Shown: positions 14,392 through 63,021 of the stretch, in pieces | Position numbering within the stretch: position 1 is the first letter of the stretch | Layout of the letters: every line of letters begins with the position of its first letter | NCBI GenBank assembly: GCA_963681965.1 | Contig: OY820579.1 | Coordinates: forward strand, 3,136,001-3,200,000 | Direction of reading: 5' to 3' | Source of the DNA: a bacterium | GTDB taxonomy: Bacteria > Electryoneota > JAOADG01 | Length of the DNA: 64,000 nucleotides | Program-made: the position numbers and the translations under genes | The notes under the pieces: generated by a model | What the model was told of the DNA's origin: nothing | The model's input: the letters and a program-made list of their open reading frames with translations, nothing else | Databases searched by the model: none

Positions 14392-14509
14392 TATAGTCTC
14401 TCTTGAAAATCATTTGTTATCGGTAGTAGGGGCTGATCCCCACATCCGCCCGCAGGTCAGGCGAAGCCTGATACCGAATCATGACAACTTATTTTCAAGA
14501 ACCACTATA
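14392..14509 (+). repeat. dispersed MITE/REPIN-like element, copy 1
   Basis: Imperfect TIR TATAGT..TCTTGAAAAT..TTGTTAT / ATGACAA..ATTTTCAAGA..ACTATA; internal GTAG-GGGC..GCCC hairpin and TCAG-GCGAAGC-CTGA hairpin. Confidence 0.8.
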
Positions 14510-14515
14510 TGTACA

Positions 14516-14543
14516 GAAAAAGGCGGGAATTCCCGCCTTTTTC
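14516..14543 (-). terminator. intrinsic terminator of the nuo operon
   Basis: GAAAAAGGCGGG-aatt-CCCGCCTTTTTC. Confidence 0.85.
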
Positions 14544-14562
14544 CTGCTTAAATTCTAAGACT

Positions 14563-16014
14563 TTACATTTTACCGACAAAACCTTCTGCCGCCCAATTGA
14601 CCCACTTGATCACCAATCCGGGGAAAGTACCAAGAATGAACGTTGGAACGGCGCAAGTAAGCAACAGCGCATATACTTGACTGGAGACCGGTTTCGTATT
14701 TAACTCCTCAGCGCTATCGGTCAGGAACATCTCTTTGGCAATCTTAGTATAGTACACTAAGCTCACTACCGTGTTGATCACTGCGATTAACGCTAACGAA
14801 GTCTGATTAGCTTTAATCAGTGCATTGAATATCATATACTTACCGACGAAGCCAGCAAGTGGTGGAATACCAACCAAACTGAATAAGAAGATCGCAAACA
14901 TCACAGCCGTGAACGGATCCCGCTTTCCCAATCCTCGATAAACTTCGAGATTTACGCTTCCGTACGTTCGCTCAATCCATTCCACCACGGCAAAGGCACC
15001 AATGTTCATGAATAAATAAGCGATCAAGTAAAATGATAAACCAGCGTAGCCATCCGTCGAATTGACAGTAAATACCGTAAAAATATATCCTGCATGCGCA
15101 ATCGAGGAATACGCTAACAGTCGCTTCAAATTCGTCTGCGGAAGTGCGGCTAGATTTCCCAAAGTCATCGTTGCGACTGCGATCCACCAGAACAACTTAT
15201 CCCAGCCAAATTGAACCAAGGCGGTGTCGGGAACTGCATTAATCAAAAATCGGGCAAGCGCGGCAAGACCTGCAGCTTTTGGTGCTACCGAAAAGAATGC
15301 CGTCATCGGAGTTGGTGCGCCTTCGTACACATCCGGACACCAAAAATGAAATGGCACTGCGGCGATCTTGTAACCAAATCCGGCAACCATCAACACCATT
15401 GCGACAAATGCGACCAATTCGTAGCCGTTCCCCTGGGCATCAAGCATGTCGCGCAGACCGGAATAGGTTGTTTCGCCAGTGATTCCGTACAAAAAGGAAA
15501 AACCGAATAACATCATTCCGATCGAAACTGCACCATACAGAACGTATTTCAGCGCCGCTTCACCCGATTTGCGGTTAGCACGGTAATAACCGGCTAGGAT
15601 ATACGATGGTACCGACACAGTTTCCAAACCGACAATCAGTACGATGAAATCGGAAGCGCTGGCGACGATATACATCCCGAATACAACTGCCGCCAACAAT
15701 AAATAATATTCACCGTTCTTATGGAATCGTGGAAGCGACATCCATATCCCGAAAATTCCGGCTGCGCTGGCAAACAACTTGATAAAGGTAGAGAAAGGAT
15801 CGATCCGGAAGGTCCCGGCAAAGTACAAACCGTTGGGCGTAAAGACTACCGATACACCGGCAGCGATTACAAACAACAAGCTTGTTACCCATGCTAACGC
15901 AGCGCGATCCTTGTCTTTGGATGTGACATCCCAAATGAGTAGGATGACGAACCCAAGAGCAAGCGTCATTTCGCCCGCAGCGCCGATGAAGTCGTTGAGT
16001 GAGAGCATCGTCAT
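14563..16014 (-). CDS. nuoN: NADH-quinone oxidoreductase subunit N
   Basis: EAALKY, KIAAVPFHFWCPDVYEGAPTP and KRLLAYSSIAHAGY motifs. Confidence 0.95.
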   Translation of the reverse strand: MTMLSLNDFIGAAGEMTLALGFVILLIWDVTSKDKDRAALAWVTSLLFVIAAGVSVVFTPNGLYFAGTFRIDPFSTFIKLFASAAGIFGIWMSLPRFHKNGEYYLLLAAVVFGMYIVASASDFIVLIVGLETVSVPSYILAGYYRANRKSGEAALKYVLYGAVSIGMMLFGFSFLYGITGETTYSGLRDMLDAQGNGYELVAFVAMVLMVAGFGYKIAAVPFHFWCPDVYEGAPTPMTAFFSVAPKAAGLAALARFLINAVPDTALVQFGWDKLFWWIAVATMTLGNLAALPQTNLKRLLAYSSIAHAGYIFTVFTVNSTDGYAGLSFYLIAYLFMNIGAFAVVEWIERTYGSVNLEVYRGLGKRDPFTAVMFAIFLFSLVGIPPLAGFVGKYMIFNALIKANQTSLALIAVINTVVSLVYYTKIAKEMFLTDSAEELNTKPVSSQVYALLLTCAVPTFILGTFPGLVIKWVNWAAEGFVGKM

Positions 16015-16015
16015 C

Positions 16016-17569
16016 TTAGAATCCGTTCATTGCGATCACTGCCGCCGGTTTCACGATGGTAATTAAATGGTTGAGCGAACCACTGATCATGTTTAAAATC
16101 GGGTGCGGATAAACACCCAGAACTATTACAATGATTGCCAGCGGTACGAGGGTGAACATTTCTCGCCCGTTAATTTCCGGAAGATCTTTATATTTTTCGT
16201 TCAACGGTCCAAAGAAGACCCGTTGAATTGTCCAGAGTAAGTAGCCCGCAGTAATAATGATACCGAATGCGGAAATCATCGTGTATACCGGCCAAGTCTG
16301 ATAACTTCCCATGAATACCAGGATTTCGGAAATGAAGCCGCTCAAACCCGGCAAACCTAACGAAGCAAAGAACGCAAAGGCGGTCATACCCATATAGCGC
16401 GGAACCACCGAACCGATACCGCCGAAACCGTTGATTTCACGGTGGTGAGCACGATCATAAACCACACCCACCAAGAGGAACAACATGGCTGTTATCGTAC
16501 CATGGTTGAACATCTGGAGCACTGCGCCGTTGATACCGGCAGGCGTCAATGCGCTCATACCAAGTAGCACATAACCCATGTGAGAAATCGAACTGTATGC
16601 CACAAGCTTCTTGAGGTCGGTTTGCGCCATCGCGCAAAATGCCCCATACAGAATGTTAATGACACCCAAAATCGCCATCATATTGCTGAAGTAGTAAGAT
16701 GCATCCGGGAAGATCCCAAAATTGATTCGCAACATACCGTAAGTACCCATTTTCAAAAGGATACCTGCTAGGATCACGGAGATTGCGGTGGGAGCTTCCA
16801 CGTGGGCATCCGGTAACCACGTATGGAACGGGAATACCGGCACTTTAATGGCAAAGCCGATAAACAAGGCAATCCACAGGACATAACGGATACTGTATCC
16901 CAAAAACATACCAGTATTCCGCAGCCACTCGGTTTGACTCGTCTGCTGCATCATCGTAACCATGTCGAAAGTATGCTGTCCGGTAAGTGGATCGATGGTA
17001 TTCTGATATAGAATGATCATTGCCAGCAACATCAGCACTGAACCAGCCAGTGTATAAAGGAAGAACTTGATTGCGGCATAGATTCTTCGCGGTCCACCCC
17101 AGATACCGATTAAGAAATACATCGGTAACAGCATGACTTCCCAGAACACATAGAACAGGAAGAAGTCAAGTGAGATGAAAGTTCCCAGCATACCTGTTTC
17201 AAGCAACAGGAACAGCGTCATGTAACCTTTGACCTGTTTCGCGATTCCCCACGATGCAAAGATGCAGAGGAAGCTTAACAACGTCGTAAGCCAGACCATC
17301 GGGAACGAGATGCCATCGACACCGACATACCAGAAAATATTGTATCCCGGAATCCAGACGGCGCGCTCGACAAATTGGAACGTCTTCGGATCGTTCACAC
17401 CGATGCTGCTGTTGTTGTATTGAAAGAGCAGGACAGTGGCAATAACCAACGGCACAAATGTTGTCGCCGCAGCCAGCCAACGCATGATATTCAGGCGCTC
17501 TTTTGGAACCAAGAGGATGATCAACGCTCCCACCAGTGGGAAGAAGGTCATGATCGAAAGCGGACCCAT
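16016..17569 (-). CDS. nuoM: NADH-quinone oxidoreductase subunit M
   Basis: FYVFWEVMLLPMY, KVPVFPFHTWLPDAHVEAPT and LLKMGTYG motifs. Confidence 0.96.
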   Translation of the reverse strand: MGPLSIMTFFPLVGALIILLVPKERLNIMRWLAAATTFVPLVIATVLLFQYNNSSIGVNDPKTFQFVERAVWIPGYNIFWYVGVDGISFPMVWLTTLLSFLCIFASWGIAKQVKGYMTLFLLLETGMLGTFISLDFFLFYVFWEVMLLPMYFLIGIWGGPRRIYAAIKFFLYTLAGSVLMLLAMIILYQNTIDPLTGQHTFDMVTMMQQTSQTEWLRNTGMFLGYSIRYVLWIALFIGFAIKVPVFPFHTWLPDAHVEAPTAISVILAGILLKMGTYGMLRINFGIFPDASYYFSNMMAILGVINILYGAFCAMAQTDLKKLVAYSSISHMGYVLLGMSALTPAGINGAVLQMFNHGTITAMLFLLVGVVYDRAHHREINGFGGIGSVVPRYMGMTAFAFFASLGLPGLSGFISEILVFMGSYQTWPVYTMISAFGIIITAGYLLWTIQRVFFGPLNEKYKDLPEINGREMFTLVPLAIIVIVLGVYPHPILNMISGSLNHLITIVKPAAVIAMNGF

Positions 17570-17702
17570 AGCGTAGTGCTTCCTTTCTGACTACCTAATT
17601 CAGGATCGATAACAAATCAAATCAATGCGGATAATCGGCATCAGTTGAGCCAATCTCAATCGCCGGAAATAAGCGATTAGATCCGATCAAGCGAAAAAAT
17701 TA

Positions 17703-19850
17703 CTATAAAATCGTACCAGCGACGATGACAATGAGAATTGCCCCGATCGCCAAAACTGTTACTAACAAATACCGCTGAAGATTGCCAGTTTGAACCAATC
17801 GAACGCGATCGCCCGAGCGACCGACAACCCATGCCAAACCATTTACTGCGCCATCAATGACACTATTGTCGAACTTGCCGGTACCGAATGAGAAATTCCG
17901 GGTTAACCATGCGGTACCATTCACGATACCGTCAATAACGTATTGGTCGAATAGTGCCATTGTCTTGGAAAACAGTAGAGTGAATGCGATCACCGTCTTA
18001 TCGTACAACTCATCCATCCACCACTTATTGAGCATACCCTTGTAGAATAGACCCAACTTAATTTTCCAGGCATCGGTATCGACCTTCTTCTTCAAGAATG
18101 TCGTCCATGACAGCCAGATGCCACCACCCGCGACACATACCGACAAGATCATTGCCAATAAGTGCGCGAAATGCTCGGTGTGTTCCTTCTCGGCATCCAT
18201 TGCCTCGCTGCCACCATGTTCTGCTGCCGGTTTGGCTTCGCCTGTGGCATGTGCTACTGCCGGTTCACCCTGTTTAACCATTTCTTCGTGCGGCGCAGGT
18301 ACTGTTAGCATTGCCGCATACGCGCGCGGAGGAGTTGCTACTTGCGAATTAAACCACCCCTTCGTCGAGAACGGATTCACGTTGGGTAACGTAAACCAGA
18401 AGAAAACCGATAATGTCGCCAAGGTAATTAGCGGGATAGTCATTGCCTTCGGTGATTCGTGCAGGTGTCCTTCTGCTTCCGAACCACTCAGGAATTTTCC
18501 AAAGAATGTCTTGTAAATAATCCGGAACATGTAGAATGCGGTCATTCCGGCAGTCACAAAACCGAATAGCACCAAAATCCAGCTAATACCGCCATTCTCC
18601 ATCGCATACGCCAGTGTCGCGCCAAGGATAGCATCCTTCGACAGAAAACCGCTAGTAAACGGGACACCGGAGATTGCCAGTGTCGCTATCAACATCGTCA
18701 AGTATGTCACCGGCATTGCACGCTTCATGCCGCCCATATTCCGCATATCCTGCGGATCGGCATGGCTGTGGATGTGATGCAAGGCAATGTGCATCGCGTG
18801 GATCACTGATCCGGATGCTAGGAACAAACAGGCTTTGAACATCGCGTGGGTGACCAAATGGAATAATCCGGCGGTGTATGCACCGACACCCAGACCCATA
18901 ATCATGTAACCCAACTGCGAAATCGTCGAGTACGCCAACACCTTCTTGATATCGTATTGCGCTACGGCGATCGTCGCAGCAAAGAACGCCGTAAAACCGC
19001 CAACCAAGGCAATCACCAGACCGGCATCCGGAGTGATAATCGGGAAAATTCGTGCGACCAAATAAACACCCGCCGCCACCATCGTTGCAGCGTGGATCAA
19101 GGCACTAACCGGTGTCGGACCTTCCATTGCATCGGGCAACCAGACGTGTAACGGGAATTGTGCTGACTTACCGACAGCGCCACAGAACAGCAACAAGCCA
19201 ATGACTGTGAGCGTACCCATCGAAATCGAACCGTGAGCAACCGCAGCATACACTTTTTCGAGATTCAATTCACCCAGCAAAGCAAAAGTGAGAAGGATAC
19301 CGATCAGCATCCCGAAGTCGCCGATCCGGTTCGTAATGAACGCTTTTTTCGATGCTTGCGCGGGTGCATTCTTCTCGTGCCAGAACCCGATTAGCAAGTA
19401 GCTGGAGAGACCAACTAGTTCCCAGAAGATATAAAGACCGAGCAACGAATCTGCCAGCACCAATCCGAGCATCGAGAAACTGAATAGCGACAGATATGCG
19501 AAAAATCGACCGTACTTTGGATCACCTTTCATGTACTGAGTACTGAACAGGTGAACTAGCGAGCTGACCAAAGTCACCACGATCAACATTACCGAAGTCA
19601 AGACGTCGAAGTGAACACCAACTTGAACCGCGGCGGATCCGAGCGGTATCCAATCGAAGACCAGATTTTCGGAATACCCCACAGGTTTCATCATGATGTC
19701 GATGAACAACTTCAGTGACAGGATTAACCCGGCAAAGATGGTTGCAAGCGATAGAAAGTCGCCGTTGCGCGGAAGTCGTTTGCTGTTCAGCAAAACGATT
19801 GCGAAACTGGCAAGTGGCATCAGCCATACGAATAGGGCAAGAGTAATCAT
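17703..19850 (-). CDS. nuoL: NADH-quinone oxidoreductase subunit L
   Basis: GKSAQFPLHVWLPDAMEGPTPVSALIHAATMV, HAMFKACLFL and C-terminal VIDGAVN..QTG. Confidence 0.96.
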   Translation of the reverse strand: MITLALFVWLMPLASFAIVLLNSKRLPRNGDFLSLATIFAGLILSLKLFIDIMMKPVGYSENLVFDWIPLGSAAVQVGVHFDVLTSVMLIVVTLVSSLVHLFSTQYMKGDPKYGRFFAYLSLFSFSMLGLVLADSLLGLYIFWELVGLSSYLLIGFWHEKNAPAQASKKAFITNRIGDFGMLIGILLTFALLGELNLEKVYAAVAHGSISMGTLTVIGLLLFCGAVGKSAQFPLHVWLPDAMEGPTPVSALIHAATMVAAGVYLVARIFPIITPDAGLVIALVGGFTAFFAATIAVAQYDIKKVLAYSTISQLGYMIMGLGVGAYTAGLFHLVTHAMFKACLFLASGSVIHAMHIALHHIHSHADPQDMRNMGGMKRAMPVTYLTMLIATLAISGVPFTSGFLSKDAILGATLAYAMENGGISWILVLFGFVTAGMTAFYMFRIIYKTFFGKFLSGSEAEGHLHESPKAMTIPLITLATLSVFFWFTLPNVNPFSTKGWFNSQVATPPRAYAAMLTVPAPHEEMVKQGEPAVAHATGEAKPAAEHGGSEAMDAEKEHTEHFAHLLAMILSVCVAGGGIWLSWTTFLKKKVDTDAWKIKLGLFYKGMLNKWWMDELYDKTVIAFTLLFSKTMALFDQYVIDGIVNGTAWLTRNFSFGTGKFDNSVIDGAVNGLAWVVGRSGDRVRLVQTGNLQRYLLVTVLAIGAILIVIVAGTIL

Positions 19851-20155
19851 TGTTTCATATCCGAGGCATGGTCGACGAAAACAGTTCCGCGCTGACGGTA
19901 CAACCCGAGAAAGATCGACAGCGCCACGGCAGCTTCGGCAGCGGCAAGCAAAATGATAAACAGCGCGACCAAGTGTCCGCGCAGGTTACCGGTGCTGAAA
20001 TGAGAAAAGATAATGAAGTTTAATCCCGCGCTGTTGAGTATCAGTTCGATTCCCATCAGAATGGAAACGGCATTCTTGCGAGTCAGTACCGCCAGAATCC
20101 CAAGAATAAACAATCCGCAAGATATGCAGAGGAAAACGGTGACGTTATTCAGCAT
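19847..20155 (-). CDS. nuoK: NADH-quinone oxidoreductase subunit K
   Basis: ILMGIELILNSA and AAAEAAVAL motifs. Confidence 0.93.
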   Translation of the reverse strand: MLNNVTVFLCISCGLFILGILAVLTRKNAVSILMGIELILNSAGLNFIIFSHFSTGNLRGHLVALFIILLAAAEAAVALSIFLGLYRQRGTVFVDHASDMKQ

Positions 20156-20657
20156 CTTCGTCGCTCCGTTCCCGCCCTAAGCGAACTGCACCGATCAATG
20201 CTGCAACCAACAGGATCGAGGCGGCTTCGAAGGCGATCACATAAGTGAAGATCAATTCTCGACCAATCGCGGCAGTGGTTGGTTGTGCGGCTAATTGATT
20301 GACCAGCCACGGTGTGTAAATAATCATCACCATCAATGCAATGCCAACAGCACCAACTGGGATCAGTGCCAAATAGCGCTGTTGCGTTTGTTCAAAAATA
20401 TCGAGGTTCGTGATCCGGGAAGTGAGCAATACGCCGAAAATGATCAGGATCAGAATACCACCGACGTATACAATCACTTGCGTTGCAGCCAAGAAGTCGG
20501 CAGCCATCAACACATAAAGTGCCGCGACACCGATAAACGTAAACAGCAGTGCAAACGCCGAGTACAGAATTCGCGGTGAAAACGTGACGACCGATGCCGA
20601 TGCCAACGTTAACAATCCGAAAAATCCGATCGCGATATCAAGAAGGAGCGATTCCAT
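20145..20657 (-). CDS. nuoJ: NADH-quinone oxidoreductase subunit J
   Basis: ADFLAATQVIVYVGGILIL and FEAASILL motifs. Confidence 0.93.
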   Translation of the reverse strand: MESLLLDIAIGFFGLLTLASASVVTFSPRILYSAFALLFTFIGVAALYVLMAADFLAATQVIVYVGGILILIIFGVLLTSRITNLDIFEQTQQRYLALIPVGAVGIALMVMIIYTPWLVNQLAAQPTTAAIGRELIFTYVIAFEAASILLVAALIGAVRLGRERSDEDAE

Positions 20658-21379
20658 TATTTATCTCCTCCATCGGGACCAGGACACTGGTCATTAAAAG
20701 GTTCTTCCGGCGGTTTCGGCGCTTCGACTGGTTTTTCCGGCACTGTTGCTACCGGCGGTTTCGGCGTTGCTGGTGCTGCAGTCGGAGCAGCGGCTACCGG
20801 TTTCGGTGCTGCGGCTTTGGCGGCTTTTTCAGCGGCGGCAGCTGCGACCAGTTCATCGCGTTCGGCAGCATTATGCCGTGAATAATTCACAAATAAATCG
20901 TCGCGATTTTGTGCGATATGATGAAAATCGGGAATCATAAAGATTGCGTCGTCGTTGCACACAGTGGTGCAAAGTCCGCAATACAGACACTTCGAATGAT
21001 CGATCGTAAATTCGGCAATATGTAACGGACGGCGTTTGCCATTCGGTCGAGTACCAAGATCTACACCAGCGACCGGCTTCGCTGTGACAATCGTGATGAT
21101 ACCGGGCGGGCAAATCTTGTCGCACTGCATGCAGCCACCACACAAATCGATATCGACCTGAACGCGCTGACGCGATCGTTCGGCAATCGGAATGGATTCA
21201 TGCGGATACTGTACTGTATGACGTTTGATAAAGTAGTGACCGCCAGTGATGCTCAAACCGACAAGTGTCGTATAAAAGCCATCCCAGACTTCCACTAGCC
21301 ATTTTATGAATGGGTTGCGCTTTTCGGAAGATACCGTGTATGAAATCGGTATCCCCAGCGCAGTTCTCATTTGGGCCAT
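20657..21379 (-). CDS. nuoI: NADH-quinone oxidoreductase subunit I (2x[4Fe-4S]) with Ala/Pro-rich tail
   Basis: [17 protein letters not shown] and [11 protein letters not shown] motifs; position between nuoH and nuoJ. Confidence 0.9.
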
Positions 21380-22419
21380 AACATCGCCACCGTTGCAATC
21401 GCAATGAAATTAACAAGCGCGAGTGGAAGGAACACCTTCCAACAAATGTGCATCAACTGGTCGACACGCACGCGCGGAAGCGTCCAGCGAAGCCACATCT
21501 GTACAAACACTATCACTAATGATTTTAGGACTAACCAAATCGGACCGGGAATAATGCTGAGCCAAGGTGCCGGTGCCAAAGGACCGCCCAAAAAGACGAC
21601 CGAAGCAATCGCAGCAACGATGAACATATTGGCATATTCCGCAAGGAAGAACATCGCGAACCGAATACCGGTATATTCCGTGTGGTAACCCGCAACCAGT
21701 TCCGATTCCGCTTCAGGAATATCGAATGGGGTACGGTTGGTTTCGGCAAGCGATGACCAGAAGTAGATAATAAAGGCAATGATCGTGAAGGGTGGAACCC
21801 GGAACAGATACCAATTCCAGAAGTACCCTTCGCCCGGAAAGCCAACCCTCTGTGCTTCGACGATATCGATAAACGACAGCGATCCAGCCAAAATCACTGG
21901 TAGCATCAATGAAAGCGATACCGGAATTTCATAGCTGACGATCTGAGCAGCGGAACGCATCGCACCATATAGCGCCCACTTGTTGTTGCTAGCCCAGCCA
22001 GCCATCAAAATACCGATCACTGCAGTGCTGGAAAGCGCTACCGCATAATAGACACCGATATTCAAATCACTGCCGATTAAACTGGCACCGAATGGAATAA
22101 CCGCCAATACACCAAGCGAACCGGCAAACACGACATAAGGCGCCAATTTGAACAGTTTCCGGTCGGCTAATGCCGGAATAATGTCTTCTTTAAGGAGCAG
22201 TTTCAAAGCATCGGCTATCGTCTGCGCCCACCCTTGAAAACCGAAACCACCCGTCTCCATCGGACCGTAGCGATCTTGGGCATATCCCGAGACTTTACGT
22301 TCTAACCACACTGCAAACAACGCGAAAACAATCACGAACCCAAGCACAATCCCCATCCAGACGGTCTGCCAGACGATCAAGGGAAGGTTCCATGGGGCTA
22401 AAGGATTGAATACTTCCAT
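21367..22419 (-). CDS. nuoH: NADH-quinone oxidoreductase subunit H
   Basis: [20 protein letters not shown] and [25 protein letters not shown] motifs. Confidence 0.96.
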
Positions 22420-23588: not shown

Positions 23589-23589
23589 A

Positions 23590-25024: not shown

Positions 25025-25139
25025 AAGTTCTCTCTTTAACTCAGCTTTACTCAGCTATTGAATTTACGAAATCAACTCGATTTCGCTTTGATGAAACCGC
25101 CATAAACTTATCAGTTTTTTGCGTCCATTCCAAGCGGGA

Positions 25140-25155
25140 TGTGATACTCTTCACA
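25140..25155. promoter_or_regulatory. CRP-type (or Rex-like) operator upstream of nuoA
   Basis: Perfect TGTGA-tactct-TCACA, 115 bp upstream of the nuoA start. Confidence 0.6.
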
Positions 25156-25299
25156 ATTCCAAGAATTTGAAGAATATACTTGTATAAGGACGATTATTTG
25201 TACCATAAATCGACCGAATTAACGTAATATGACAGGAAATCGTGATTTTCACTTAATTTCACGCTTGTAGTCGGTATCGACAGGGCTTTCAATCCAATT

Positions 25300-39524: not shown

Positions 39525-39553
39525 AAGCCGGACATCCTGTCCGGTTTTTTTTT
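39525..39553 (+). terminator. intrinsic terminator after crp
   Basis: AAGCCGGACA-tcc-TGTCCGGTTT followed by a T run. Confidence 0.85.
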
Positions 39554-39635: not shown

Positions 39636-39771
39636 TATAGTATCTCTTAAAAAAAAGTTGTTATCTGTAGTAGGGGCGGGTCCCCGCGCCCGCCCGCAAG
39701 TATTTGCATGTACCGACACTCATTTACTTGTTCGACACAATGTCACGATATCTTATTTTAGAGATACTTTA
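39636..39771 (+). repeat. dispersed MITE/REPIN-like element, copy 3 (diverged centre)
   Basis: TATAGTATCTCTTAAAA..GTTGTTATC.GTAGTAGGGGCGGG..CCCGCCCGCA...TTATTTTAGAGATACT. Confidence 0.7.
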
Positions 39772-39827: not shown

Positions 39828-39855
39828 AAAAAAAGGCGGGGCTGAAGCCCCACCT
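39828..39855 (-). terminator. intrinsic terminator after the HIT gene
   Basis: Minus strand reads AGGTGGGGC-ttca-GCCCCGCCT followed by a T run. Confidence 0.8.
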
Positions 39856-39884
39856 CCGACACCAAAGATGATTGCTAATAATCG

Positions 39885-45301: not shown

Positions 45302-45309
45302 ACAAATAC

Positions 45310-45427
45310 TATATTCTCCCTTGAAAATGAATTGTTATCGGTAGTAGGGGCGGACCCCCGTGTCCGCCCGCAGGTCAGGCGAAGCCTGACTCCGAATCAT
45401 GACAACTAATTTTCAAGAACACATCAC
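45310..45427 (+). repeat. dispersed MITE/REPIN-like element, copy 2
   Basis: Nearly identical to 14392-14509; perfect GGGCGGAC/GTCCGCCC hairpin after GTAG; GTCAG-GCGAAGC-CTGAC. Confidence 0.85.
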
Positions 45428-53518: not shown

Positions 53519-53563
53519 GATTTTTTACACTTTCGCTAAGAAATATGAATATGGATGAGAATA

Positions 53564-54583: not shown

Positions 54584-54602
54584 GAATTAACAAGCTTTTG
54601 CA

Positions 54603-57125
54603 TTATTGATTGAGAAATCTATGAATAAAGATTACAGTACGATCGTCGGACGGGGGCGCATTGGCAGTAACTGAAGTTACATCGATAAATAGTTGATCCA
54701 GTGCTTCCTGTGCAGTTTGTTCGCGGGAAGCAAGCAAAGTCGATTGCAATCGATCATGTCCATAAAAGTTGATTGAATCCGCTGTCGCTTCGGAAATACC
54801 ATCGGAGTAGATCAAAAGTCGATCACCATAATCTAGTTTCACTTCGCCATTGCTGTACTTCATTCCGGTGAATGCACCAACTACCGCTCCCCCCTCTCGA
54901 AGCTCTTGGATTTTTCCGTGGCTTAAGAGTAGCGGGTTTTCGTGACCGGCATTGACATACTTTAACACACCCGTTTCGCAATCCAATACAGCCAGGAATA
55001 GTGTCACAAACAATTCTGATGATGTCGTTCGGTATACCGCCTCATTCAATTTGGTGACGACGATTTCCGGATTGTCGAACATCGAGCAGAGTGTTCGAAG
55101 TGTTGCTTGTACATTCGACATTAATAGTGCCGCCGCCATCCCCTTACCTGAAACATCTCCGAGTGATATGACAATTCTATTCTCAGATAATGGTTGAAAA
55201 TCGTAAAAATCGCCGCCCACATCTTCGGCAAATTCATTACGAGCTGACAGTTCCCAGCCCGGAAGTACCGGAGGGGAATTAGGCATCAAATTCTTCTGGA
55301 TCGATCGTGCTATCTGAAGATCGGCTTTGATTCGTTCTTTGATTTGGATCTCTGCCAGCATTTGCTTGATATCTTCAGCCATTAGATTGAACGAATAGGC
55401 AATTTCACCTAATTCGTCTTTCGATTCAATTGGAATTCGATGGCCAAGTTCACCTCGTCGTAATGCTAAAGTTCCGGTAATCAACCGATCGGCACTCGAT
55501 GAGATTAGTCTAGTAATTTGAAATCCAATATTTATCGCAACTAACCCAATAACAAATAATATTGTCGATAAGCCTAATTGAAGGATGGTGATAAACCGCA
55601 ATACCGGATTCTCTCGACCCGAAAACGTGATATAGATCCGATCGATCGAACTGTATAGCGTAACCAATGTTGACCAGGTAATTGCATGTTGATCGAAAAC
55701 AATCGTTTGATACGGTATAAATCCAATTGGAAAGGACTGGGCTAAAAATCCGTTCGTACTATCTCGACCCACAGTAGACAGCAAAACATCCTTTTCATCT
55801 TCTTTTTTTGGCGAAACTGGTAGCGGATTATTCGTATTAAAGACAATCGCATCGGGATTTTGCTGTGGAATGGAAGTGACTTGGATATCTACATCGGCAA
55901 TCGATTTGCTGTGTAAGAGATCCCTCTGTGTGATCGGGTGCGCCATGCAGTACAGCGAACCTTCCCGCTCCACAAAGACCAACCACATCATCCGATTCAT
56001 CGCCAGTCCGAGACTGGAATATGGCGGAGATAGGATCTCTTTGGTCAGAAAATGCTTAAATAACTTGTTACTATCGGCGACCGGCGAATAGCGATAGAAA
56101 GTTTGCTTCGATTTGGTGACTACTTTTTGCCAATGATACCTCATCACATAGTTTTCAGCATTGGAAACACGCTGAACTGCCACACTATTGTCTTCAATCT
56201 GTTTCAGATCCTCAAGCGGCATATTACTCAATTTTAAAATCATATCTTTCGTCGGTTCAAGTACTAACGAGTTCGCGACCCGGCTGGAAAATCCCGATAA
56301 CCAAACGAAACCCACGAGTGACATGATAAAGATCAGTAGCACGGTTGGAAGAAGACTTGTAAATAAAAAAGAAATAACGAGTTTCGACCGAATCGGTGAA
56401 TTTTCGCGAATATTGCGAATGATCGGTGTTCCGACCAAACGGATAATCGCTAGCATCGAGCCGCAAAGCAGTAATAAGCGATTAAATTCCAGCGCTTCAC
56501 TAAAATATTTCGGCAAAAAGAGTTCACGATAGATCGAATTATCGGAAATATTACTAATCAGAATAGAAAAGGTAATCGAATAGATAAAGATTGTTAAAAT
56601 AAGTTTAATCAAACCCTTCGTTCGATCTGTCGCGTCACCACGCACAAATAAAGTCAATATCACGATTACTGCAATTAGATGTAGAATAGTGTGATGATAG
56701 ACTAAAAACGGGGCACCGATAACAACAAATGGCAGCAACCATTCCGGTTGTACGCTTTGCTTGAAGAGCGGCCACGACGGTCGAGGTTCTAGAATTAGTC
56801 GAAGCGAGTAAAATTGAAGCGACAGCATTAAAAATAGAACGACTATCGCAAGTAACGGGCGTGACGCGATGGGTAAGATTGACAATATTCCCGATGCGGC
56901 AAGTAAGATCCACAACCATTTCGGACTCAAACCCCGAGCCTCGACACCCCATGCAATACAGATTGAAGCGACAAATACAAAATGAAATGTACCCCAAACA
57001 CTCGTGCCATTCAGTAAATAGAGTACAGTAGCTAAGACAAAAAAGATGCCGCCGCATAATAGAATTATCCTGCGGGTAACATTCGAAACTGGAATGGAGA
57101 TCAATTTTTGGAGATAATTAGACAT
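54603..57125 (-). CDS. membrane PP2C/SpoIIE (RsbU-like) phosphatase with HAMP domain
   Basis: Multi-TM N-terminus, HAMP (SKDELGEIAYSFN.M), GGDFYD, GDVSGKG, NAGH, SDGI.EA and DDRT motifs. Confidence 0.92.
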   Translation of the reverse strand: MSNYLQKLISIPVSNVTRRIILLCGGIFFVLATVLYLLNGTSVWGTFHFVFVASICIAWGVEARGLSPKWLWILLAASGILSILPIASRPLLAIVVLFLMLSLQFYSLRLILEPRPSWPLFKQSVQPEWLLPFVVIGAPFLVYHHTILHLIAVIVILTLFVRGDATDRTKGLIKLILTIFIYSITFSILISNISDNSIYRELFLPKYFSEALEFNRLLLLCGSMLAIIRLVGTPIIRNIRENSPIRSKLVISFLFTSLLPTVLLIFIMSLVGFVWLSGFSSRVANSLVLEPTKDMILKLSNMPLEDLKQIEDNSVAVQRVSNAENYVMRYHWQKVVTKSKQTFYRYSPVADSNKLFKHFLTKEILSPPYSSLGLAMNRMMWLVFVEREGSLYCMAHPITQRDLLHSKSIADVDIQVTSIPQQNPDAIVFNTNNPLPVSPKKEDEKDVLLSTVGRDSTNGFLAQSFPIGFIPYQTIVFDQHAITWSTLVTLYSSIDRIYITFSGRENPVLRFITILQLGLSTILFVIGLVAINIGFQITRLISSSADRLITGTLALRRGELGHRIPIESKDELGEIAYSFNLMAEDIKQMLAEIQIKERIKADLQIARSIQKNLMPNSPPVLPGWELSARNEFAEDVGGDFYDFQPLSENRIVISLGDVSGKGMAAALLMSNVQATLRTLCSMFDNPEIVVTKLNEAVYRTTSSELFVTLFLAVLDCETGVLKYVNAGHENPLLLSHGKIQELREGGAVVGAFTGMKYSNGEVKLDYGDRLLIYSDGISEATADSINFYGHDRLQSTLLASREQTAQEALDQLFIDVTSVTANAPPSDDRTVIFIHRFLNQ

Positions 57126-57521
57126 GTAACGATTCCGGACACCGAAAGATAACTATTTCGATGACGACCCCCAAAGTAATTTGTTTATATATTTATTTAC
57201 ATCTAAATGTTACATTGATTAATATTCAATGCATACAAAGTAAAATACTTGATAAAGCTATCCCCCTCGGAGCAGTCTAAGATAACTCAGAAACACTTCT
57301 TTAACTAGAACGAATTCATAACTATTTATAATATGTTTCACGAAAGTCACATTGTGAATTTTTGTACTCTGTCGGATAACTTTGTATACTTTCACCGTTG
57401 TATTAGTATCTTCATTTCAATCAACAAATCGATGTTTTCTTGGTGTATTAGCCATGCTCCTGACACAACGTATCAGGAGCATTTTAAGCCCCAACGAGTG
57501 TTATTTTATTCGGAGGAATCA

Positions 57522-60152
57522 ATGAAACCACTGCGAAACATTCGCATTTCTGTTTTATTCTTATCGGTTGTTCTCTGCATTTTATCGCTGGTTTCATTCG
57601 CCAGCGCAATCCAATTTGCCGAGAATTTCGATGTCAGTGCCAAAGCTGCCTATGCTGCAGCCGATGTAACTATACATGGCAATACTTGGAATTTAGACGA
57701 TGTGCTTACCGGCAATATCGCGGGAGACAAGAAAAACGGAACTTACTCGTTACGTATGCGTGCTCCTGCTGCAGGTCAAGGCGTTACGATGAAGTTCGAT
57801 TACCCCTATGGCGCCAGCACCGTTCTAGTTTCCAGTGCAACTTATGGCAGTGATGCTGCAAGTTCTTGGAGTTTTTGGAAATCTACCGATCAGGGTGGAA
57901 CATGGACTCAGGTTGGTTCGGCAGTCACAACAACTGGAACCTTAACTGCAACGACATTCACAGTGAATGTATCGGGCAATATTCGATTTCAGATTCGTCG
58001 TGCTTCGGGTTCTTCCTCGACTCGCATCAACTTTGATGATTTCACGATTAATGGTTACGGTACTCCCACAATTGCAGTTACCCAAGGTAGCTCGATTGCC
58101 AACGGTGGTTCGAAAAGCTTTGGAAGTGTCAATCTTGGTTCATATACCGATTTAACATTCACAATCAACAACACCGGTAATGGCGCTTCTGCCCTGAGCT
58201 TCAACGATTTAACCGGTACCGATTTCAGTTTCCAAGGGACCAACCCCGCAGTCGTAACTGCCAGCGGATCTGCGACATTTACCGTTCGCTTTACTCCGAC
58301 TGCAGTCGGTTCACGAACCGCTACTGTCAATGTAACCAACGATCAAACTGGGAATACACCCTATGTGATCAACTTATCTGGAACTGGTGTTGGCGTTCCA
58401 AATCTAATGGCCAATATAGGTATCGATGTTCCCAATGGTGGCACGATTAATTACGGCGAATGTCTTATCGGAACAGCTTACGATTATCCAATCACGATCA
58501 ATAATAGCGGTACCGGTGCATCGGCATTGAGCTTCAGCGATCTTTCCGGTGAATTCACTTATTTGAATGCCAATCCTGCAACTGTTGCTGCCGGTAGTTC
58601 AGCAATCTTCACCGTTCGATTCATTCCGACTGCTGTTGGTCTGAGAAGCGGCTCCGTTAGCATTACGACTGACCAAGTCGGAAACACACCTTATGTAATC
58701 AATTTACAGGGTACTGGTACAGGTTCACCATCGCTATCAGTCGCAGTGGTTTCGACACCTGTCGCCAACGATGGAACGCAAGATTTCGGAACAGTGACAC
58801 TTGGTTCTTACTCCGATATCACTTTCAACATTCAAAATGTCGGCACCCTGCCCTCTAGCCTGAGCTTCAACTCGCTTTCAGGCGATTTCAGTTACCAAGG
58901 CTCTAATCCTTCCAGTATTGCTGCTAACTCCGGGCTAGAGTATTTTACCGTTCGCTTCACCCCAACAGCAATAGGTGCCAGAACTGCTACTATAAATATC
59001 ACGAACGACCAGTCGGGTAATTCTCCGTTTGTCATTCACCTAACGGGTACTGGTGGAAGTTATGCGACACCACCAATTGCGAATCCCGATCCAAATCCGG
59101 CTCCGCAAACACCGTGGACACCGACCATCCCGACTGATCCGACCATCGGTGATGTCCCGACGGCTCCAGTAGTGATCGACTTCCCGGCACAAGCTGGTCC
59201 GTATTCGAATCCGACCTCGATCACGGTAACACAGACCACGACCCCACCAGCAAGTCTGCTCGGTTCCGGCTTAGTGGATGCGAACCATACCATTGCGCGT
59301 TTTTGGACGATTACTCCAAATTCGGAAAACTTCGTCAATGCAACTTTGACACTGCATTTTGGATTGGCTGACCTCCCCGCCGGAATCGTTGATCCGATCA
59401 CTGCAGTTCCGCGATTGTATGCATTATACTCATCCAATGGTGTCAACTGGCACATTATGGATGGTGTAATCACCGGTCCCGATGCCAATGGCGTATACAG
59501 CTATACCGTCAGTGGTCTAAACCACTTCTCTGAATGGGGTGTTGGCAATGGCGCTTTGTTGCCCGTTCAACTTGCCACCTTCAATATCACATCATTCGAT
59601 AAAGGGATCCGCCTCAACTGGACGACTGAATCCGAATTGAATGTCAAGCGCTTCAAGATCGAGCGCTGGGCAAACGGTGACGAAAACAACGTTCAGACGA
59701 TTCTGCATGAGAGTAAGTCGGTCAACGGTAACAGCTCGACTACCCTGAATTATTCGGTGGAAGACAAATTCGCAGCGGTTCAGGGTCAGTACTATCATTA
59801 CCGGTTATCCGAAGAAACATTGGACGGTACGGTTACTGAACTCCGTTCGCGAGTAGTTGAGTACCGTGTGAAAACGTTCGAACTGCCCAAGGGCTTCGGT
59901 TTGTTAAAAGCATATCCGAATCCATTCAACCCCACCACGACGATTCGCGTTCAGCTTCGCGAAACCGCCACTGCTACCGTGTCAATTTACAACACGAATG
60001 GTCAGTTGGTTAGCACGCTATATCGCGGTCTTGTTGGAATCGAACCGATGAACCTCCAGTTCAATGCCGCAAATCTTCCCAGTGGCGTATACATGGTTCA
60101 AATCAGCAGCCCGAAATTCACGACCCAAAAGAAAATCGTTCTGATGAAGTAG
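57522..60152 (+). CDS. secreted protein with three choice-of-anchor D (ASH-like Ig) domains, Pro/Thr linker, beta-sandwich and T9SS-type C-terminal domain
   Basis: Start reassigned to ATG 57522 (SD GGAGG); three (F/Y)G....G....(F/I).I.N.G...FTVRF.PTA.G.R units; LLPVQL..F; AYPNPFNP..KIVLMK. Confidence 0.85.
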   Translation: MKPLRNIRISVLFLSVVLCILSLVSFASAIQFAENFDVSAKAAYAAADVTIHGNTWNLDDVLTGNIAGDKKNGTYSLRMRAPAAGQGVTMKFDYPYGASTVLVSSATYGSDAASSWSFWKSTDQGGTWTQVGSAVTTTGTLTATTFTVNVSGNIRFQIRRASGSSSTRINFDDFTINGYGTPTIAVTQGSSIANGGSKSFGSVNLGSYTDLTFTINNTGNGASALSFNDLTGTDFSFQGTNPAVVTASGSATFTVRFTPTAVGSRTATVNVTNDQTGNTPYVINLSGTGVGVPNLMANIGIDVPNGGTINYGECLIGTAYDYPITINNSGTGASALSFSDLSGEFTYLNANPATVAAGSSAIFTVRFIPTAVGLRSGSVSITTDQVGNTPYVINLQGTGTGSPSLSVAVVSTPVANDGTQDFGTVTLGSYSDITFNIQNVGTLPSSLSFNSLSGDFSYQGSNPSSIAANSGLEYFTVRFTPTAIGARTATINITNDQSGNSPFVIHLTGTGGSYATPPIANPDPNPAPQTPWTPTIPTDPTIGDVPTAPVVIDFPAQAGPYSNPTSITVTQTTTPPASLLGSGLVDANHTIARFWTITPNSENFVNATLTLHFGLADLPAGIVDPITAVPRLYALYSSNGVNWHIMDGVITGPDANGVYSYTVSGLNHFSEWGVGNGALLPVQLATFNITSFDKGIRLNWTTESELNVKRFKIERWANGDENNVQTILHESKSVNGNSSTTLNYSVEDKFAAVQGQYYHYRLSEETLDGTVTELRSRVVEYRVKTFELPKGFGLLKAYPNPFNPTTTIRVQLRETATATVSIYNTNGQLVSTLYRGLVGIEPMNLQFNAANLPSGVYMVQISSPKFTTQKKIVLMK

Positions 60153-60176
60153 TTACATTCAATCATCTTTTTACAG

Positions 60177-60209
60177 AGTGGGGTGCCCAAACGGCACCCC
60201 ATTTTGTTT
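60177..60209 (+). terminator. intrinsic terminator
   Basis: TGGGGTGCC-caaac-GGCACCCCA-TTTTGTTT. Confidence 0.85.
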
Positions 60210-60488
60210 GCCATAGACTTCGACTATGAATTTGTTATTCCGACGACTTACGATTATTAGTAGGTTTGAATACAATCATTATCTCTCAGAGAGAACGTTA
60301 GATCCCCCATAAATAACGGCTATTTTCCCAATTAATCAATTCTTTATTAAACATTTGGATCGATATCTCCGGAATTCAAGGGGAATTGAAATCAAAGATC
60401 GCGGGCTTTGGATTGTGGTTATAATAAACTCGAGCTAACTTTAAGCGATTGTCTCTCATTTTTTTTCTATAACTGGAGGATTAAATAA

Positions 60489-62819
60489 ATGAAATCATTG
60501 CGACTGTTTTTTCTCGTAATGGTTGTTGCAATACTCGCAACAACAGTATTCGCTGTTGCACCTATCACCATGCAGGAAGATTTACTGCCACGTTACATGA
60601 CTCATGGTGCAGGCTCTCCAACTGTTCGCGTTCCGTTTGCATATAGGTTGACACTAAATGGCTTGAATTCAGCTGCAACATACAGACTGATCAACATGAT
60701 GGACTCCGCTGGCGGTAGCGCCAATGGCGCTTGCAACGCGTTTGAGGTACCCCCGACTAATTTAACCGGCTGGACGTATTCTTCTAGTCCGGATACCAAC
60801 ACTGTCGGCAAATATATCACTTTTACCGGCGTGTCGAGTCTTTCGAATTGGTTCATTACCGAACCTACTGCCAACCGTCGATTGATTGGTCCGTTGGCAA
60901 ATCAAGCCGCTCGGGCTGCGTTTGTTAAAATTACCATGTCTTCGCAGCAGGTTTGGTCGACTAGTTCCGTGAAATCTCTCGGTATCAACACCACTTACAA
61001 CTCGACTGATACCGCTGGTTCCTTCCTTTACGGTATCCTTCCCGACGCATCGATGGACAAGAACTTTGTATTTGTTTATGACAATGCCGAAGGAACCGGT
61101 CGTCCGATCGGTGGCAGCTTTGTCGAGAGCACTGGATTATCGGGATTGCCGGCAAGCTATCTGCTGAAGTACAAAGACAGCGTTCGCGCTTTCTCCGGTC
61201 GCTTTGGCGTCGTTATTCCGAATTACAATGCCAATGGCGTGAAGCGCATCGAAATTCGCTCGCTGACCGATGGCAGCATCATCCGCACCTACTCTACATC
61301 AAATGCAGTTTGGCCATCCGGCGCCAATACCATTTTCGATGCGACCACCAACATTCCCGTTGGAACCGTTGGTCTGCGTCTTGCCGGTAGCGACTTTGCG
61401 ACCGTGCTTGCCGCGTCCACTCCCGCTGGTGGATGTCCGAATACTGGAACCGTCGATTTCGGAACGATCAATCTGGGTCAGAATTCGGACATCGTGTTCA
61501 CGTTAGCGAACCATGGTGCGAGAAATTCCAATCTAACAGTTGTCAGTTCGAACAATACCGAATTCGCGGTTACGAACAACAACGCTACCAGCATCGGTGG
61601 CTATAACAACACCAAGACCTTTACGATTCACTTCGCCCCGACCAATACTGGCGCGCGAACGTCGACGATTACGATAACTAGCGACGATGTTAGTTCACCG
61701 TACACGATTTCGTTAACCGGTACTGGCGATCAGTATACTTCATTACCAGTTCCGAATCCGGCAGTCAACCCGCAAGATCCGTGGGTACCGACGATTCCGA
61801 CCGACCCAACAATCGGTACGACACCGACCGCACCAGTAATTTTGGACTTTCCGCCTCAGATTGGACCGTTCTCCAATCCGACTACAGTTACTGTCACTCA
61901 AACCACAACTGTACCGCCAGCATTGATTGGTTCCGGATTGGTCGATGCCAATCACGTTATCAATCGCTTCTGGACTATTACACCCGATGCCGAGAATTTC
62001 CAGAATGCGACTTTGACATTCCACTTTACCGCGGCAGATCTTCCGCTCGGTATTGGCGATCCAGTGACGGTCTCTCCGCCACTTTATGCGATCTTCTCGA
62101 ATGACGGTGGTATTACTTGGCATCCGGTCGCCGGCGTTGTTACCGGTCCCGATGGCAATGGTGTCTACAGCATGACGGTCAGTGGTTTGAATCACTTCTC
62201 CAAATGGGCTCTTGGTAGCGGCGCATTATTGCCCGTTACCTTGTCGACCTTCGACGTGATTCCGGTATCGCAGGGTACACGCCTACGTTGGACTACCGAA
62301 ACTGAAATGAATGTGAAGCACTTCATCATCGAGCGCTGGGCACAAGGTTCCGAGAATGTTGTTCAACGGATTCAGACTCCCAGCAAGGCACCGAATGGCA
62401 GCAGCCCGACTCCATTGTCGTATGCTGTGGAAGATAACTTCTTGGCAATCCCGGGAACATTCTATCACTATCGTCTGTCCGAAGAAACGCTGGACGGCGT
62501 TGTCAATGAACTCCGCACCCGCGTTGTGCAATTCCCGACTGCTGCACAAGTACCGACTGGATTCGATTTATTGAAGGCGTATCCAAACCCCTTCAATCCA
62601 TCTACTCGAATTCGCGTACAGCTCAGCGAACCCGGTTTTGCTACCGTATCCGTATTCAATATCAACGGTCAATTGGTTACCGAGTTGTTCAAGGGTAACA
62701 TGACGACCGATGCGAAGAACTTCAATTTCGACGGTTCCAATCTGCCGAGCGGCGTGTATCTGGTTCAGGTTTCCAGTACACAATTATCGATGCAGAAAAA
62801 GATCGTTCTGATGAAGTAA
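60489..62819 (+). CDS. secreted paralog with a different N-terminal domain, one choice-of-anchor D domain and the shared C-terminal module
   Basis: Signal peptide; SD GGAGG; the C-terminal ~360 aa align with 57522..60152. Confidence 0.85.
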   Translation: MKSLRLFFLVMVVAILATTVFAVAPITMQEDLLPRYMTHGAGSPTVRVPFAYRLTLNGLNSAATYRLINMMDSAGGSANGACNAFEVPPTNLTGWTYSSSPDTNTVGKYITFTGVSSLSNWFITEPTANRRLIGPLANQAARAAFVKITMSSQQVWSTSSVKSLGINTTYNSTDTAGSFLYGILPDASMDKNFVFVYDNAEGTGRPIGGSFVESTGLSGLPASYLLKYKDSVRAFSGRFGVVIPNYNANGVKRIEIRSLTDGSIIRTYSTSNAVWPSGANTIFDATTNIPVGTVGLRLAGSDFATVLAASTPAGGCPNTGTVDFGTINLGQNSDIVFTLANHGARNSNLTVVSSNNTEFAVTNNNATSIGGYNNTKTFTIHFAPTNTGARTSTITITSDDVSSPYTISLTGTGDQYTSLPVPNPAVNPQDPWVPTIPTDPTIGTTPTAPVILDFPPQIGPFSNPTTVTVTQTTTVPPALIGSGLVDANHVINRFWTITPDAENFQNATLTFHFTAADLPLGIGDPVTVSPPLYAIFSNDGGITWHPVAGVVTGPDGNGVYSMTVSGLNHFSKWALGSGALLPVTLSTFDVIPVSQGTRLRWTTETEMNVKHFIIERWAQGSENVVQRIQTPSKAPNGSSPTPLSYAVEDNFLAIPGTFYHYRLSEETLDGVVNELRTRVVQFPTAAQVPTGFDLLKAYPNPFNPSTRIRVQLSEPGFATVSVFNINGQLVTELFKGNMTTDAKNFNFDGSNLPSGVYLVQVSSTQLSMQKKIVLMK

Positions 62820-62838
62820 CGACGTCTTGATTCTATTG

Positions 62839-62872
62839 AAAAGGGGCACAGCAATGTGCCCCTTTTTATTTT
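62839..62872 (+). terminator. intrinsic terminator
   Basis: AAAAGGGGCACA-gcaa-TGTGCCCCTTTTT. Confidence 0.85.
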
Positions 62873-62887
62873 AGTCAATCTCATGCG

Positions 62888-63021
62888 TTAGTTGTCATCG
62901 GTAGTAGGGGCTAGCTCCCACGCCCGCCCGCAAGTTTTTGTAGGTTCAAACACTCCTGTCTGTACATGTTCGGCGAAGCCGAACACTGAATTTTGACAAC
63001 TTATTTTTAAGAACCACAATA
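62888..63021 (+). repeat. dispersed MITE/REPIN-like element, copy 4 (degenerate left end, longer centre)
   Basis: GTTGTCATCGGTAGTAGGGGC..GCCCGCCCGCA...TGTTCG-GCGAAGC-CGAACA...TGACAACTTATTTTTAAGAACCAC. Confidence 0.75.

Follow-up and report, generated by a model that had tools for sequence, protein, structure and literature searches.

The four intergenic repeats in the window, by which we mean the whole 64,000-nucleotide stretch of DNA analysed here, are members of one family of short, non-coding mobile elements, a young family restricted to its species. The family is large, its ends are sharp and resemble those of an IS630-family insertion sequence (IS) in the same genome, it was not found in the relatives searched, and its terminal arms and its GTAG-tagged REP core have evolved in unlike ways. 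The best reading is probably that of an IS630-type MITE carrying REP modules, one known kind of selfish DNA nested inside another, and not that of a new kind of element. The first-pass annotation put forward a non-autonomous repeat family in which a GTAG-plus-hairpin REP is combined with terminal inverted repeats ending in TA, and this is supported. The novelty claimed for it holds in part: the MITE family is new and restricted to its lineage, but REPs inside TATA-ended palindromes have already been described in print (PMC3733652).

Four copies in the window

All four copies previously recognized were confirmed; each is intergenic, and all lie on one strand. Their extents and parts, together with neighbouring hairpins called by a terminator scanner, are as follows.

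14392..14509, + strand: copy 1, intact 118-bp short form with ends TATAGT...ACTATA, 93% identical to the family consensus
14392..14422, + strand: left terminal inverted repeat of copy 1, ~31 nt
14426..14451, + strand: REP module of copy 1, GTAG head followed by a GC-rich hairpin
14456..14472, + strand: second hairpin of copy 1, stem GTCAGGC/GCCTGA(T) with a GAA loop; GCGAAGC at 14461-14467
14479..14509, + strand: right terminal inverted repeat of copy 1
39525..39547, + strand: terminator-like hairpin upstream of copy 2, outside the element (scanner)
39636..39771, + strand: copy 2, decayed long form; REP at 39670-39695
39832..39857, − strand: terminator-like hairpin downstream of copy 2, outside the element (scanner)
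45310..45427, + strand: copy 3, short form; REP at 45344-45369, second hairpin at 45374-45390
62837..62868, + strand: terminator-like hairpin immediately before copy 4, outside the element (scanner)
62870..63021, + strand: copy 4, long form with a decayed left arm; REP at 62904-62929
62940..62965 and 62968..62984, + strand: second GTAG hairpin and GCGAAGC hairpin of copy 4

Several details of the first-pass annotation were revised. The near-identical pair consists not of copies 1 and 2, which are only 66% identical, but of copies 1 and 3, both 118-bp short forms with 104 matches in 120 aligned columns (87%). The hairpin GGGCGGAC/GTCCGCCC and the hairpin GGGCGGG/CCCGCCC had been assigned to copies 2 and 3, respectively, with the labels swapped; the former lies in the copy at 45310 and the latter in the copy at 39636. 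Copy 4 had been started at 62888, but a decayed left arm extends it to 62870, giving a span of 152 nt. Copies 2 and 4 represent a longer form with an extra GTAG-headed hairpin, intact in copy 4 and degenerate in copy 2, between the REP and the GCGAAGC hairpin. The motif GCGAAGC was correctly placed in three copies (1, 3 and 4); copy 2 is without this hairpin, and its right arm resembles a left arm. In copy 3, mutation of the right terminus has removed the terminal TATA.

As DNA, each of the four copies folds better than its shuffled counterparts (z = −5.1, −5.9, −3.9 and −2.1). Terminator-like hairpins had been reported near every copy; the scanner found them at copies 2 and 4 but not at copies 1 and 3. 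Visual inspection shows a GC palindrome and, after it, a T run next to copy 1, at ~14518-14545. The window contains no cognate transposase, in agreement with the earlier description.

Family size, ends and distribution

The genome-wide BLASTN count proposed earlier confirmed the family: the 4.24-Mb genome holds 243 related loci, among them 77 non-overlapping full-length members (~57 short and 20 long, drawn from 61 short-form and 20 long-form blast loci) in addition to partial copies. These numbers, together with folds better than those of shuffled sequences, place the family far beyond chance. The short form measures 118 bp and the long form ~150 bp. Short loci have a median identity of 94% (maximum 98%) to their own consensus, and column conservation stays at 0.7-0.9 from TATAGT to ACTATA before dropping to 0.3-0.4 just outside. 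When family hits were classified by location, 83 of 87 were intergenic by crude ORF calls and the other 4 fell inside an ORF. Paired arm motifs are spaced by 66 nt in 38 of 55 pairs and by 100-104 nt in 8, and no REP-less version of the element was found among the pairs genome-wide. At least six truncated copies retain the left arm and the REP and lose homology 0-3 nt from the REP 3' foot.

Copy orientation is clustered along the chromosome (29 runs against 38.7 ± 4.3 expected, p = 0.015), and the clusters follow neither GC skew nor gene strand. Plain cut-and-paste transposition of an element with symmetric ends does not predict such clustering. With respect to neighbouring genes orientation is unbiased: 20 copies are co-directional, 25 opposed, 25 convergent and 13 divergent.

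Searches of 40 relatives, the same genus included, recovered no member of the family. In the same-genus genome (G001; 720 contigs, only 73-75% identical to the present genome), REP cores are present and no arm matches were detected. The empty-site check succeeded to this extent: at the locus of copy 1, the orthologous G001 spacer retains the terminator without the element, but at 73-75% identity it gave no empty site at base resolution. Paralogous empty sites sought for 61 copies gave none, and public contigs from four runs break at the copies with no joint across any of them; the MITE family accounts for these interruptions in short-read assemblies of the lineage. No match was obtained by blastn against 72,556 plasmids or with the exact pattern in three public collections of genomes, metagenomes and viruses. 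The family can also serve as a species-specific marker.

Terminal arms and the REP core

The terminal inverted repeats, ~31 bp long and ended by TATA, match each other at 25 of 31 positions. Of the two enzyme types named in the first-pass annotation, both are encoded in the genome, the IS630 type by five identical 1,094-bp copies of an IS with TATA at both ends of each and the RAYT type by three RAYT-like genes. The assignment of the IS protein rests on NCBIfam transpos_IS630 (229 bits, cut-off 100) and Pfam DDE_3 (E = 1.4e-30). Aligned without gaps from the tip, the MITE arms and the IS ends agree at 17-20 of 31 positions, including TATA, and have the 11-mer TTCTTGAAAAT in common at the same offset; among 2 million random genomic 31-mers, 19 matches were reached by a fraction of 5e-5 and 20 by 1e-5. 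TATAG is likewise the start of related IS630-family elements from two further genomes of the phylum. The search for an IS630 partner yielded an IS with similar ends but none with identical ends, and no gene flanked by identical arms, or autonomous element with identical ends, was found in this genome. As the resident IS and the MITE arms are only 55-65% alike and differ in the inner arm sequence, this IS may not be the enzyme source that mobilizes the MITE.

One IS copy has inserted into the terminal TATA of a MITE at G000 762045-762162, providing a paralogous empty site for the IS: deletion of the IS plus one TA restores the consensus MITE end. This arrangement is compatible with a TA (or TATA) duplication for the IS itself. 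For the MITE, TATA occurs at both ends with column frequencies of 0.7-0.8, and a duplicated TA is indistinguishable from a TA belonging to the element.

The arms and the core carry different substitution patterns, and a covariation check on 56 short copies gave opposite answers for the two. Across the 30 arm pairs, 1-23 broken cells and 0-3 double changes were observed per pair, so that the arm stem is uncompensated. At the REP apex the pattern is compensatory, with 8 double changes against a single broken cell in each of the two pairs. Because arm substitutions break pairing without compensation, the arms appear to evolve as sequence and to behave as transposase-binding ends rather than as a selected stem. 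The REP hairpin, on the other hand, seems to be maintained by compensatory change, as are the free REPs of the genome, where 481 of the 573 GTAG-plus-hairpin sites lie outside the family and 92 within family hits of at least 100 bp. Since G001 has REP cores but no arm matches, sequence comparison indicates that the REP predates the MITE.

The three RAYT-like genes have model scores of 94, 79 and 67 bits (cut-off 80), and two of them are flanked by inverted GTAG REPs. Those of the gene at G000 1138250-1138804 are inverted GTAGGGGCG...CGCCC REPs at 1138240/1138819, a sister variant with head and stem foot in common with the MITE-borne REP; those of the second gene, at G000 529651-530124, are of another GTAG REP type. 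None of the three is flanked by the exact hairpin variant of the MITE. The head of the element's second hairpin, GCAG, differs from GTAG by one base. Backbone differences within and between REP variants do not differ significantly (12.7 vs 13.6, permutation p = 0.20), and the variants may have arisen by stepwise mutation or by exchange.

Mechanism, alternatives and known systems

In the mechanism that we favour, the ~31-bp terminal inverted repeats would be the working ends, bound in trans by an IS630-family DDE transposase that would excise the element as double-stranded DNA and paste it into TA, duplicating the TA. The enzyme could come from the resident 1,094-bp IS with related ends or from a closer relative since lost. 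The interior would be cargo recruited from the resident superfamily of GTAG-tagged REPs. It comprises a GTAG head with its GC-rich hairpin, a second GTAG hairpin in the long form, and a further hairpin based on GCGAAGC, a very stable DNA mini-hairpin. The embedded REP is a breakpoint for truncated copies and would be swapped between REP variants, and it may remain a substrate of the resident RAYT (HUH, Y1) enzymes or of REP-REP recombination. If RAYT still processes it, one 118-bp element would harbour natural DDE-HUH cross-talk and offer REPs a route of spread without an enzyme of their own.

A larger role for RAYT can be proposed, in which the enzyme would copy the entire 118-bp unit, a BIME- or REPIN-like composite derived from REPs, as single-stranded DNA, with the long arms as mere palindromic context or target, in line with the account of Anabaena by Di Nocera et al. 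Such an origin would suit the GTAG-plus-hairpin core, the RAYT-like genes with their inverted flanking REPs, the truncations at the REP foot, the clustered orientation and the GCAG-headed GCGAAGC mini-hairpin, which is suited to a single-stranded DNA intermediate (PMC13037366); the palindrome, moreover, is never without a REP, as is also described for Anabaena (PMC3733652). We nevertheless consider it unlikely: the unit is bounded by arm tips and not by REP feet, the arms themselves are not REPs but show, at equal offsets, a resemblance to IS630-family ends, and the 481 free REPs of the same superfamily have spread without these arms. IS200/IS605-type single-strand transposition shows a replication-strand bias, to which orientation clusters independent of GC skew and gene strand give no fit. 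It is similarly doubtful that the element is a dual substrate, moved as a whole through its arms by an IS630-type DDE enzyme while RAYT (HUH) acts on the single-stranded embedded REP, so that variants are exchanged, copies are cut short at the REP foot and one orientation survives preferentially in a given region. REPs would then gain a second spreading route aboard a cut-and-paste MITE, and the Anabaena REPs inside TATA-ended palindromes would represent the same phenomenon.

Selection by the host would explain copy number by function instead of mobility, the element serving either as DNA to which a nucleoid protein binds or as an RNA that, at the 3' ends of transcripts, works as a terminator, a stabiliser or an RNase target. 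Strong folds are predicted for both strands (RNA z = −5.4 to −2.3), terminator-like hairpins adjoin copies 2 and 4, and convergent spacers, as judged by crude ORF calls, are over-represented among the sites (25 of the 83 intergenic copies that were classified vs 273 of 1,711 spacers genome-wide); effects on mRNA are described for other MITEs, involving RNase III for Correia and RNase E for ERIC (PMC10969869). However, no Rfam family matches: in an Rfam 15 scan of the window the gathering score was reached only by a tRNA elsewhere in it, and the copy regions gave only weak, chance-level hits on the neighbouring terminator. The unbiased orientation relative to genes and the uncompensated decay of the 30 long-stem pairs speak against the structured RNA near transcript 3' ends that the first-pass annotation had entertained, and ~94% uniformity with no copies found in 40 relatives fits a recent burst better than a function under conservation. 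Host selection is accordingly very improbable.

The IS630-type MITE reading places the family beside RUP of Streptococcus pneumoniae and Correia/NEMIS of Neisseria, bacterial MITEs described as derived from IS630/Tc1-mariner (PMC2817692). As those are described, they too are ~100-150 bp long, non-coding, intergenic and present in tens of copies, with terminal inverted repeats ending at TA, a long-hairpin fold and an IS630-family transposase with related ends in the same genome. Compared by description rather than by sequence, the present family differs in that its interior consists of GTAG-tagged REP hairpins and in the limited agreement between its arms and the resident IS (17-20 of 31 positions). 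In Anabaena variabilis, GTAG-15 REP dimers lie within long palindromes TATAGGA...TCCTATA, which the account of these repeats treats as an insertion target, naming no transposase (Di Nocera et al. 2013, PMC3733652). In both systems the inverted repeat around the GTAG REPs is long, opening with TATAG and closing with CTATA. The Anabaena palindromes enclose REP dimers, the present arms a GCGAAGC hairpin together with either a single REP or two GTAG hairpins of like orientation; the phylum is another, the arm sequence diverges past the first five bases, and the arms here resemble IS630-family ends. The present reading offers a testable explanation of the published arrangement, namely that the palindrome consists of IS630-type MITE ends.

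With GTAG REP/RAYT systems the family has in common the GTAG head, the GC-rich imperfect palindrome and compensatory stem changes (PMC2817692, PMC3733652, PMC3116915), as well as abundant free copies and RAYT-like genes with inverted flanking REPs; unlike the units described for those systems, the repeated unit here is bounded by inverted repeats that are not REPs. A BIME is defined by a regular alternating cluster, which this element is not. Assignment as a REPIN, defined by an inverted REP doublet that is missing here, was rejected: the arms are not REPs, the short form carries one REP, and the long form carries two GTAG hairpins in the same orientation.

The repeat in the window and across the genome

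A shared element occupies four intergenic spacers of the window, always on the + strand, as the first-pass annotation had proposed and as sequence reading, alignment and the ORF list bear out (window coordinates):

14392-14509, + strand, copy 1, short form
39636-39771, + strand, copy 2, long form
45310-45427, + strand, copy 3, short form
62870-63021, + strand, copy 4, long form

Which of these copies are alike had been mislabelled. Copies 1 and 3 form the 118-bp pair, 87% identical, and the long form (about 150 bp) comprises copies 2 and 4, which are 57-66% identical to the other copies and to each other. Reading the sequences at the four sites also showed that hairpins had been assigned to the wrong copies, and the decayed left arm with which copy 4 starts at 62870 had been missed. 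The heptamer GCGAAGC does occur, as stated, in three copies and not in the one at 39636. The terminator-like hairpin reported beside all four was found by a terminator scanner at copies 2 and 4 and not at copies 1 and 3; visual inspection places a GC palindrome and a T run next to copy 1. Separately, the right arm of copy 4 contains an outward promoter-like match (window 62993-63020; TTGACA, 16-nt spacer, CACAAT; 10/12). We do not claim an outward promoter as a feature of the right arm, given that the scanner reports copy 4 only and the consensus arm reads below its threshold.

With the four copies as blastn queries, 243 related loci were detected in the source genome G000, a single contig (C1) of 4.24 Mb and 47% G+C, and iterated nhmmer returned 326 matches, both strands and bare cores included. 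At least 100 of the 118 positions are covered at 61 loci (median identity to the consensus 94%, maximum 98%), and the long-form insert is present at 20; the union of short and long loci gives 77 separate full-length copies. Between TATAGT and ACTATA, both included, the alignment columns are highly conserved; directly beyond, conservation is at background level. In the predicted fold, which is obtained for DNA or RNA and for either strand, the arms, TATA-ended terminal inverted repeats of about 31 bp, pair as a long stem with two hairpins on top. The arm motifs lie 66 nt apart in 38 of 55 pairs and 100-104 nt apart in eight, and no arm pair lacking a REP was found in the genome. At G000:C1:108078-108448, three long-form units stand head to tail; each breaks off past its second hairpin, and the left arm of the next one adjoins the break.

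The REP core and the evolution of core and arms

The GTAG head with its GC-rich stem occurs at 573 sites in G000, 92 inside family matches of at least 100 bp and 481 elsewhere, with many stem variants. The long form carries an additional GTAG-headed hairpin, found 32 times in the genome and 13 times outside the family. In the last hairpin the head reads GCAG and the loop is the GAA of GCGAAGC, a heptamer reviewed as a very stable DNA mini-hairpin (PMC13037366). The heptamer was rejected as element-specific, since only 44 of its 1,058 genomic occurrences (both strands) lie within the family, whereas the extended hairpin that encloses it is almost confined to the family (37 occurrences within it, 9 elsewhere). 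Free REPs at several loci (G000:C1 near 11201, 681048, 3486832 and 3765274) are followed by C-rich tracts of about 40 nt, in which short C runs are separated by A or T and which resemble a further repeat module; at G000:C1:2281581-2282472, two REP types alternate in an array of about ten units with a 99-bp period.

Three genes match the model for RAYT, the REP-associated HUH (Y1) transposase, at 94, 79 and 67 bits (cut-off 80). Two inverted REPs, with the head and stem foot of the MITE's REP, border the gene at 1138250-1138804. Around the gene at 529651-530124 (L001) lie five inverted copies of a GTAG REP of a different type, which occurs 79 times genome-wide. In the gene at 526633-527121 (L002), by-eye reading finds the catalytic tyrosine missing from its usual place. 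The latter two lie 2.5 kb apart, and L002 has other small hairpins on its flanks, one of which combines the stem of the MITE's second hairpin with a different loop.

Arms and core differ in their mode of change. Across 56 short copies, the 30 arm pairs each show 1-23 single-sided cells that break pairing and 0-3 double changes, while the two apical REP-stem pairs each show eight double changes and one broken cell, with a G-T intermediate in 10-16 copies. Arm pairs are thus broken without compensation and REP pairs compensated, suggesting that the arms are kept, or are decaying, as sequence, and that in the REP it is the hairpin that is preserved. Judged from these alignments, the arms would be evolving as expected of transposase-binding ends. 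One copy carries a different REP type at the same position, and at least six partial copies retain the left arm and REP, their homology ending 0-3 nt from the REP 3' foot, past which they run on into the kind of sequence seen in free REP clusters. Both the copy with the different REP and the partial copies are compatible with an exchange at the REP, whether a RAYT or ordinary recombination carries it out. Backbone similarity and REP variant showed no significant tie (p = 0.20).

The arms and a resident IS630-family element

G000 contains five identical 1,094-bp copies of an IS630-family insertion sequence (IS), all outside the window, and one diverged fragment:

G000:C1:613488-614581, IS copy
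G000:C1:762159-763252, IS copy
G000:C1:1714244-1715337, IS copy
G000:C1:3574508-3575601, IS copy
G000:C1:3406881-3407974, IS copy
G000:C1:3369043-3369255, diverged IS fragment

The identity of the five copies indicates that the IS moved very recently, and in public contigs it is covered about five times as deeply as its flanks. The encoded protein (334 aa) contains a DDE_3 domain and reaches 229 bits with NCBIfam transpos_IS630, for which the cut-off is 100. Every IS copy has TATA at both ends. Aligned without gaps from the tip, MITE arms and IS ends match at 17-20 of 31 positions, including TATA and the 11-mer TTCTTGAAAAT at an identical offset; in the same comparison, random genomic 31-mers attain 19 matches at a frequency of 5e-5 and 20 at 1e-5. 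Cognate MITE/IS pairs usually match well above 55-65%. Because the arms match at just that level and no gene in G000 is flanked by identical arms, the enzyme acting on the MITE can only be inferred.

In the collection searched (79 genomes of the phylum), two other genomes carry related IS630-family elements (proteins 41-46% identical) whose ends also start with TATAG, and the nearest transposases among the 78 other genomes are 39-50% identical. Searches with the IS transposase found no relatives in genome_contigs (pattern plus tblastn) or, at E <= 1e-30, among plasmids. One of the five IS copies sits within a MITE, in the terminal TATA of the copy at G000 762045-762162. Removal of the IS with one TA restores a consensus MITE end, as TA duplication predicts; a TATA duplication is also compatible.

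Distribution, precedents and orientation

A search of 40 relatives did not find the element. In G001, the sole same-genus genome (720 contigs, 96% complete), REP cores are present and no arm matches were found, and the spacer orthologous to the copy 1 site keeps the terminator and lacks the element. Orthologous sites in G001 are only 73-75% identical, so that the insertion point is not placeable to the base. Exact IUPAC patterns, seeking other hosts or an autonomous element that shares the ends, gave 0 matches in metagenome_contigs, viral_contigs and genome_contigs, and blastn found nothing in plasmids. Within G000, blastn with the 80-nt flanks of 61 copies returned no contiguous paralogous empty site, the matches being to the IS and other repeats only. 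Nor was a joint across any copy found in Logan contigs of four public sequencing runs (X1, X3, X4, X5) over a 20-kb stretch with three copies and one IS; these contigs end at every copy and the listed joints connect repeats with one another, which makes them uninformative on polymorphism. No empty site was readable to the base, so that the TA duplication at the MITE is presumed. The genome has a single 16S rRNA gene (G000:C1:286435-287959, minus strand).

Nunvar et al. (PMC2817692) count Correia and RUP among the IS630-derived MITEs and note inverted REPs on either side of RAYT genes. In Anabaena variabilis, Di Nocera et al. (PMC3733652) describe many GTAG-15 dimers inside long palindromes that start with TATAGGA, end with TCCTATA and are never found without a REP, an architecture the same as that of the present element. 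There the palindrome is described as a target and no transposase is assigned, whereas the present arms resemble IS630-family ends. In light of these precedents, the present family is a variation on known kinds: a MITE family that has a REP as its cargo and is new and restricted to its lineage. Most simply, a REP that was already present would have come to form the interior of a MITE, and that MITE would have spread recently in the lineage.

Copies of like orientation cluster along the chromosome: the 77 full-length copies form 29 runs where 38.7 +/- 4.3 are expected (p = 0.015), and every one of the first 15, from 128 to 268,670, lies on the minus strand. Regional runs of a similar kind are seen among free REPs. 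A replication-strand cause was rejected, as the blocks track neither GC skew (minimum near 0.75 Mb, maximum near 2.8 Mb) nor gene-strand bias. Among 87 classified family matches, 20 are co-directional with both neighbours, 25 opposed to them, 25 in convergent and 13 in divergent spacers, and four inside crude ORFs. Convergent spacers hold more than their share of copies (25 of 83, when 273 of 1,711 spacers genome-wide are convergent), an excess usual for repeats tolerated away from promoters. The suggestion that the element is a structured RNA was not supported: these orientation counts speak against an RNA function, and Rfam gave no match to the element. The sole Rfam match within the window is a tRNA gene at 1075-1158, after which lies a 1,710-aa ORF (window 1371-6503).
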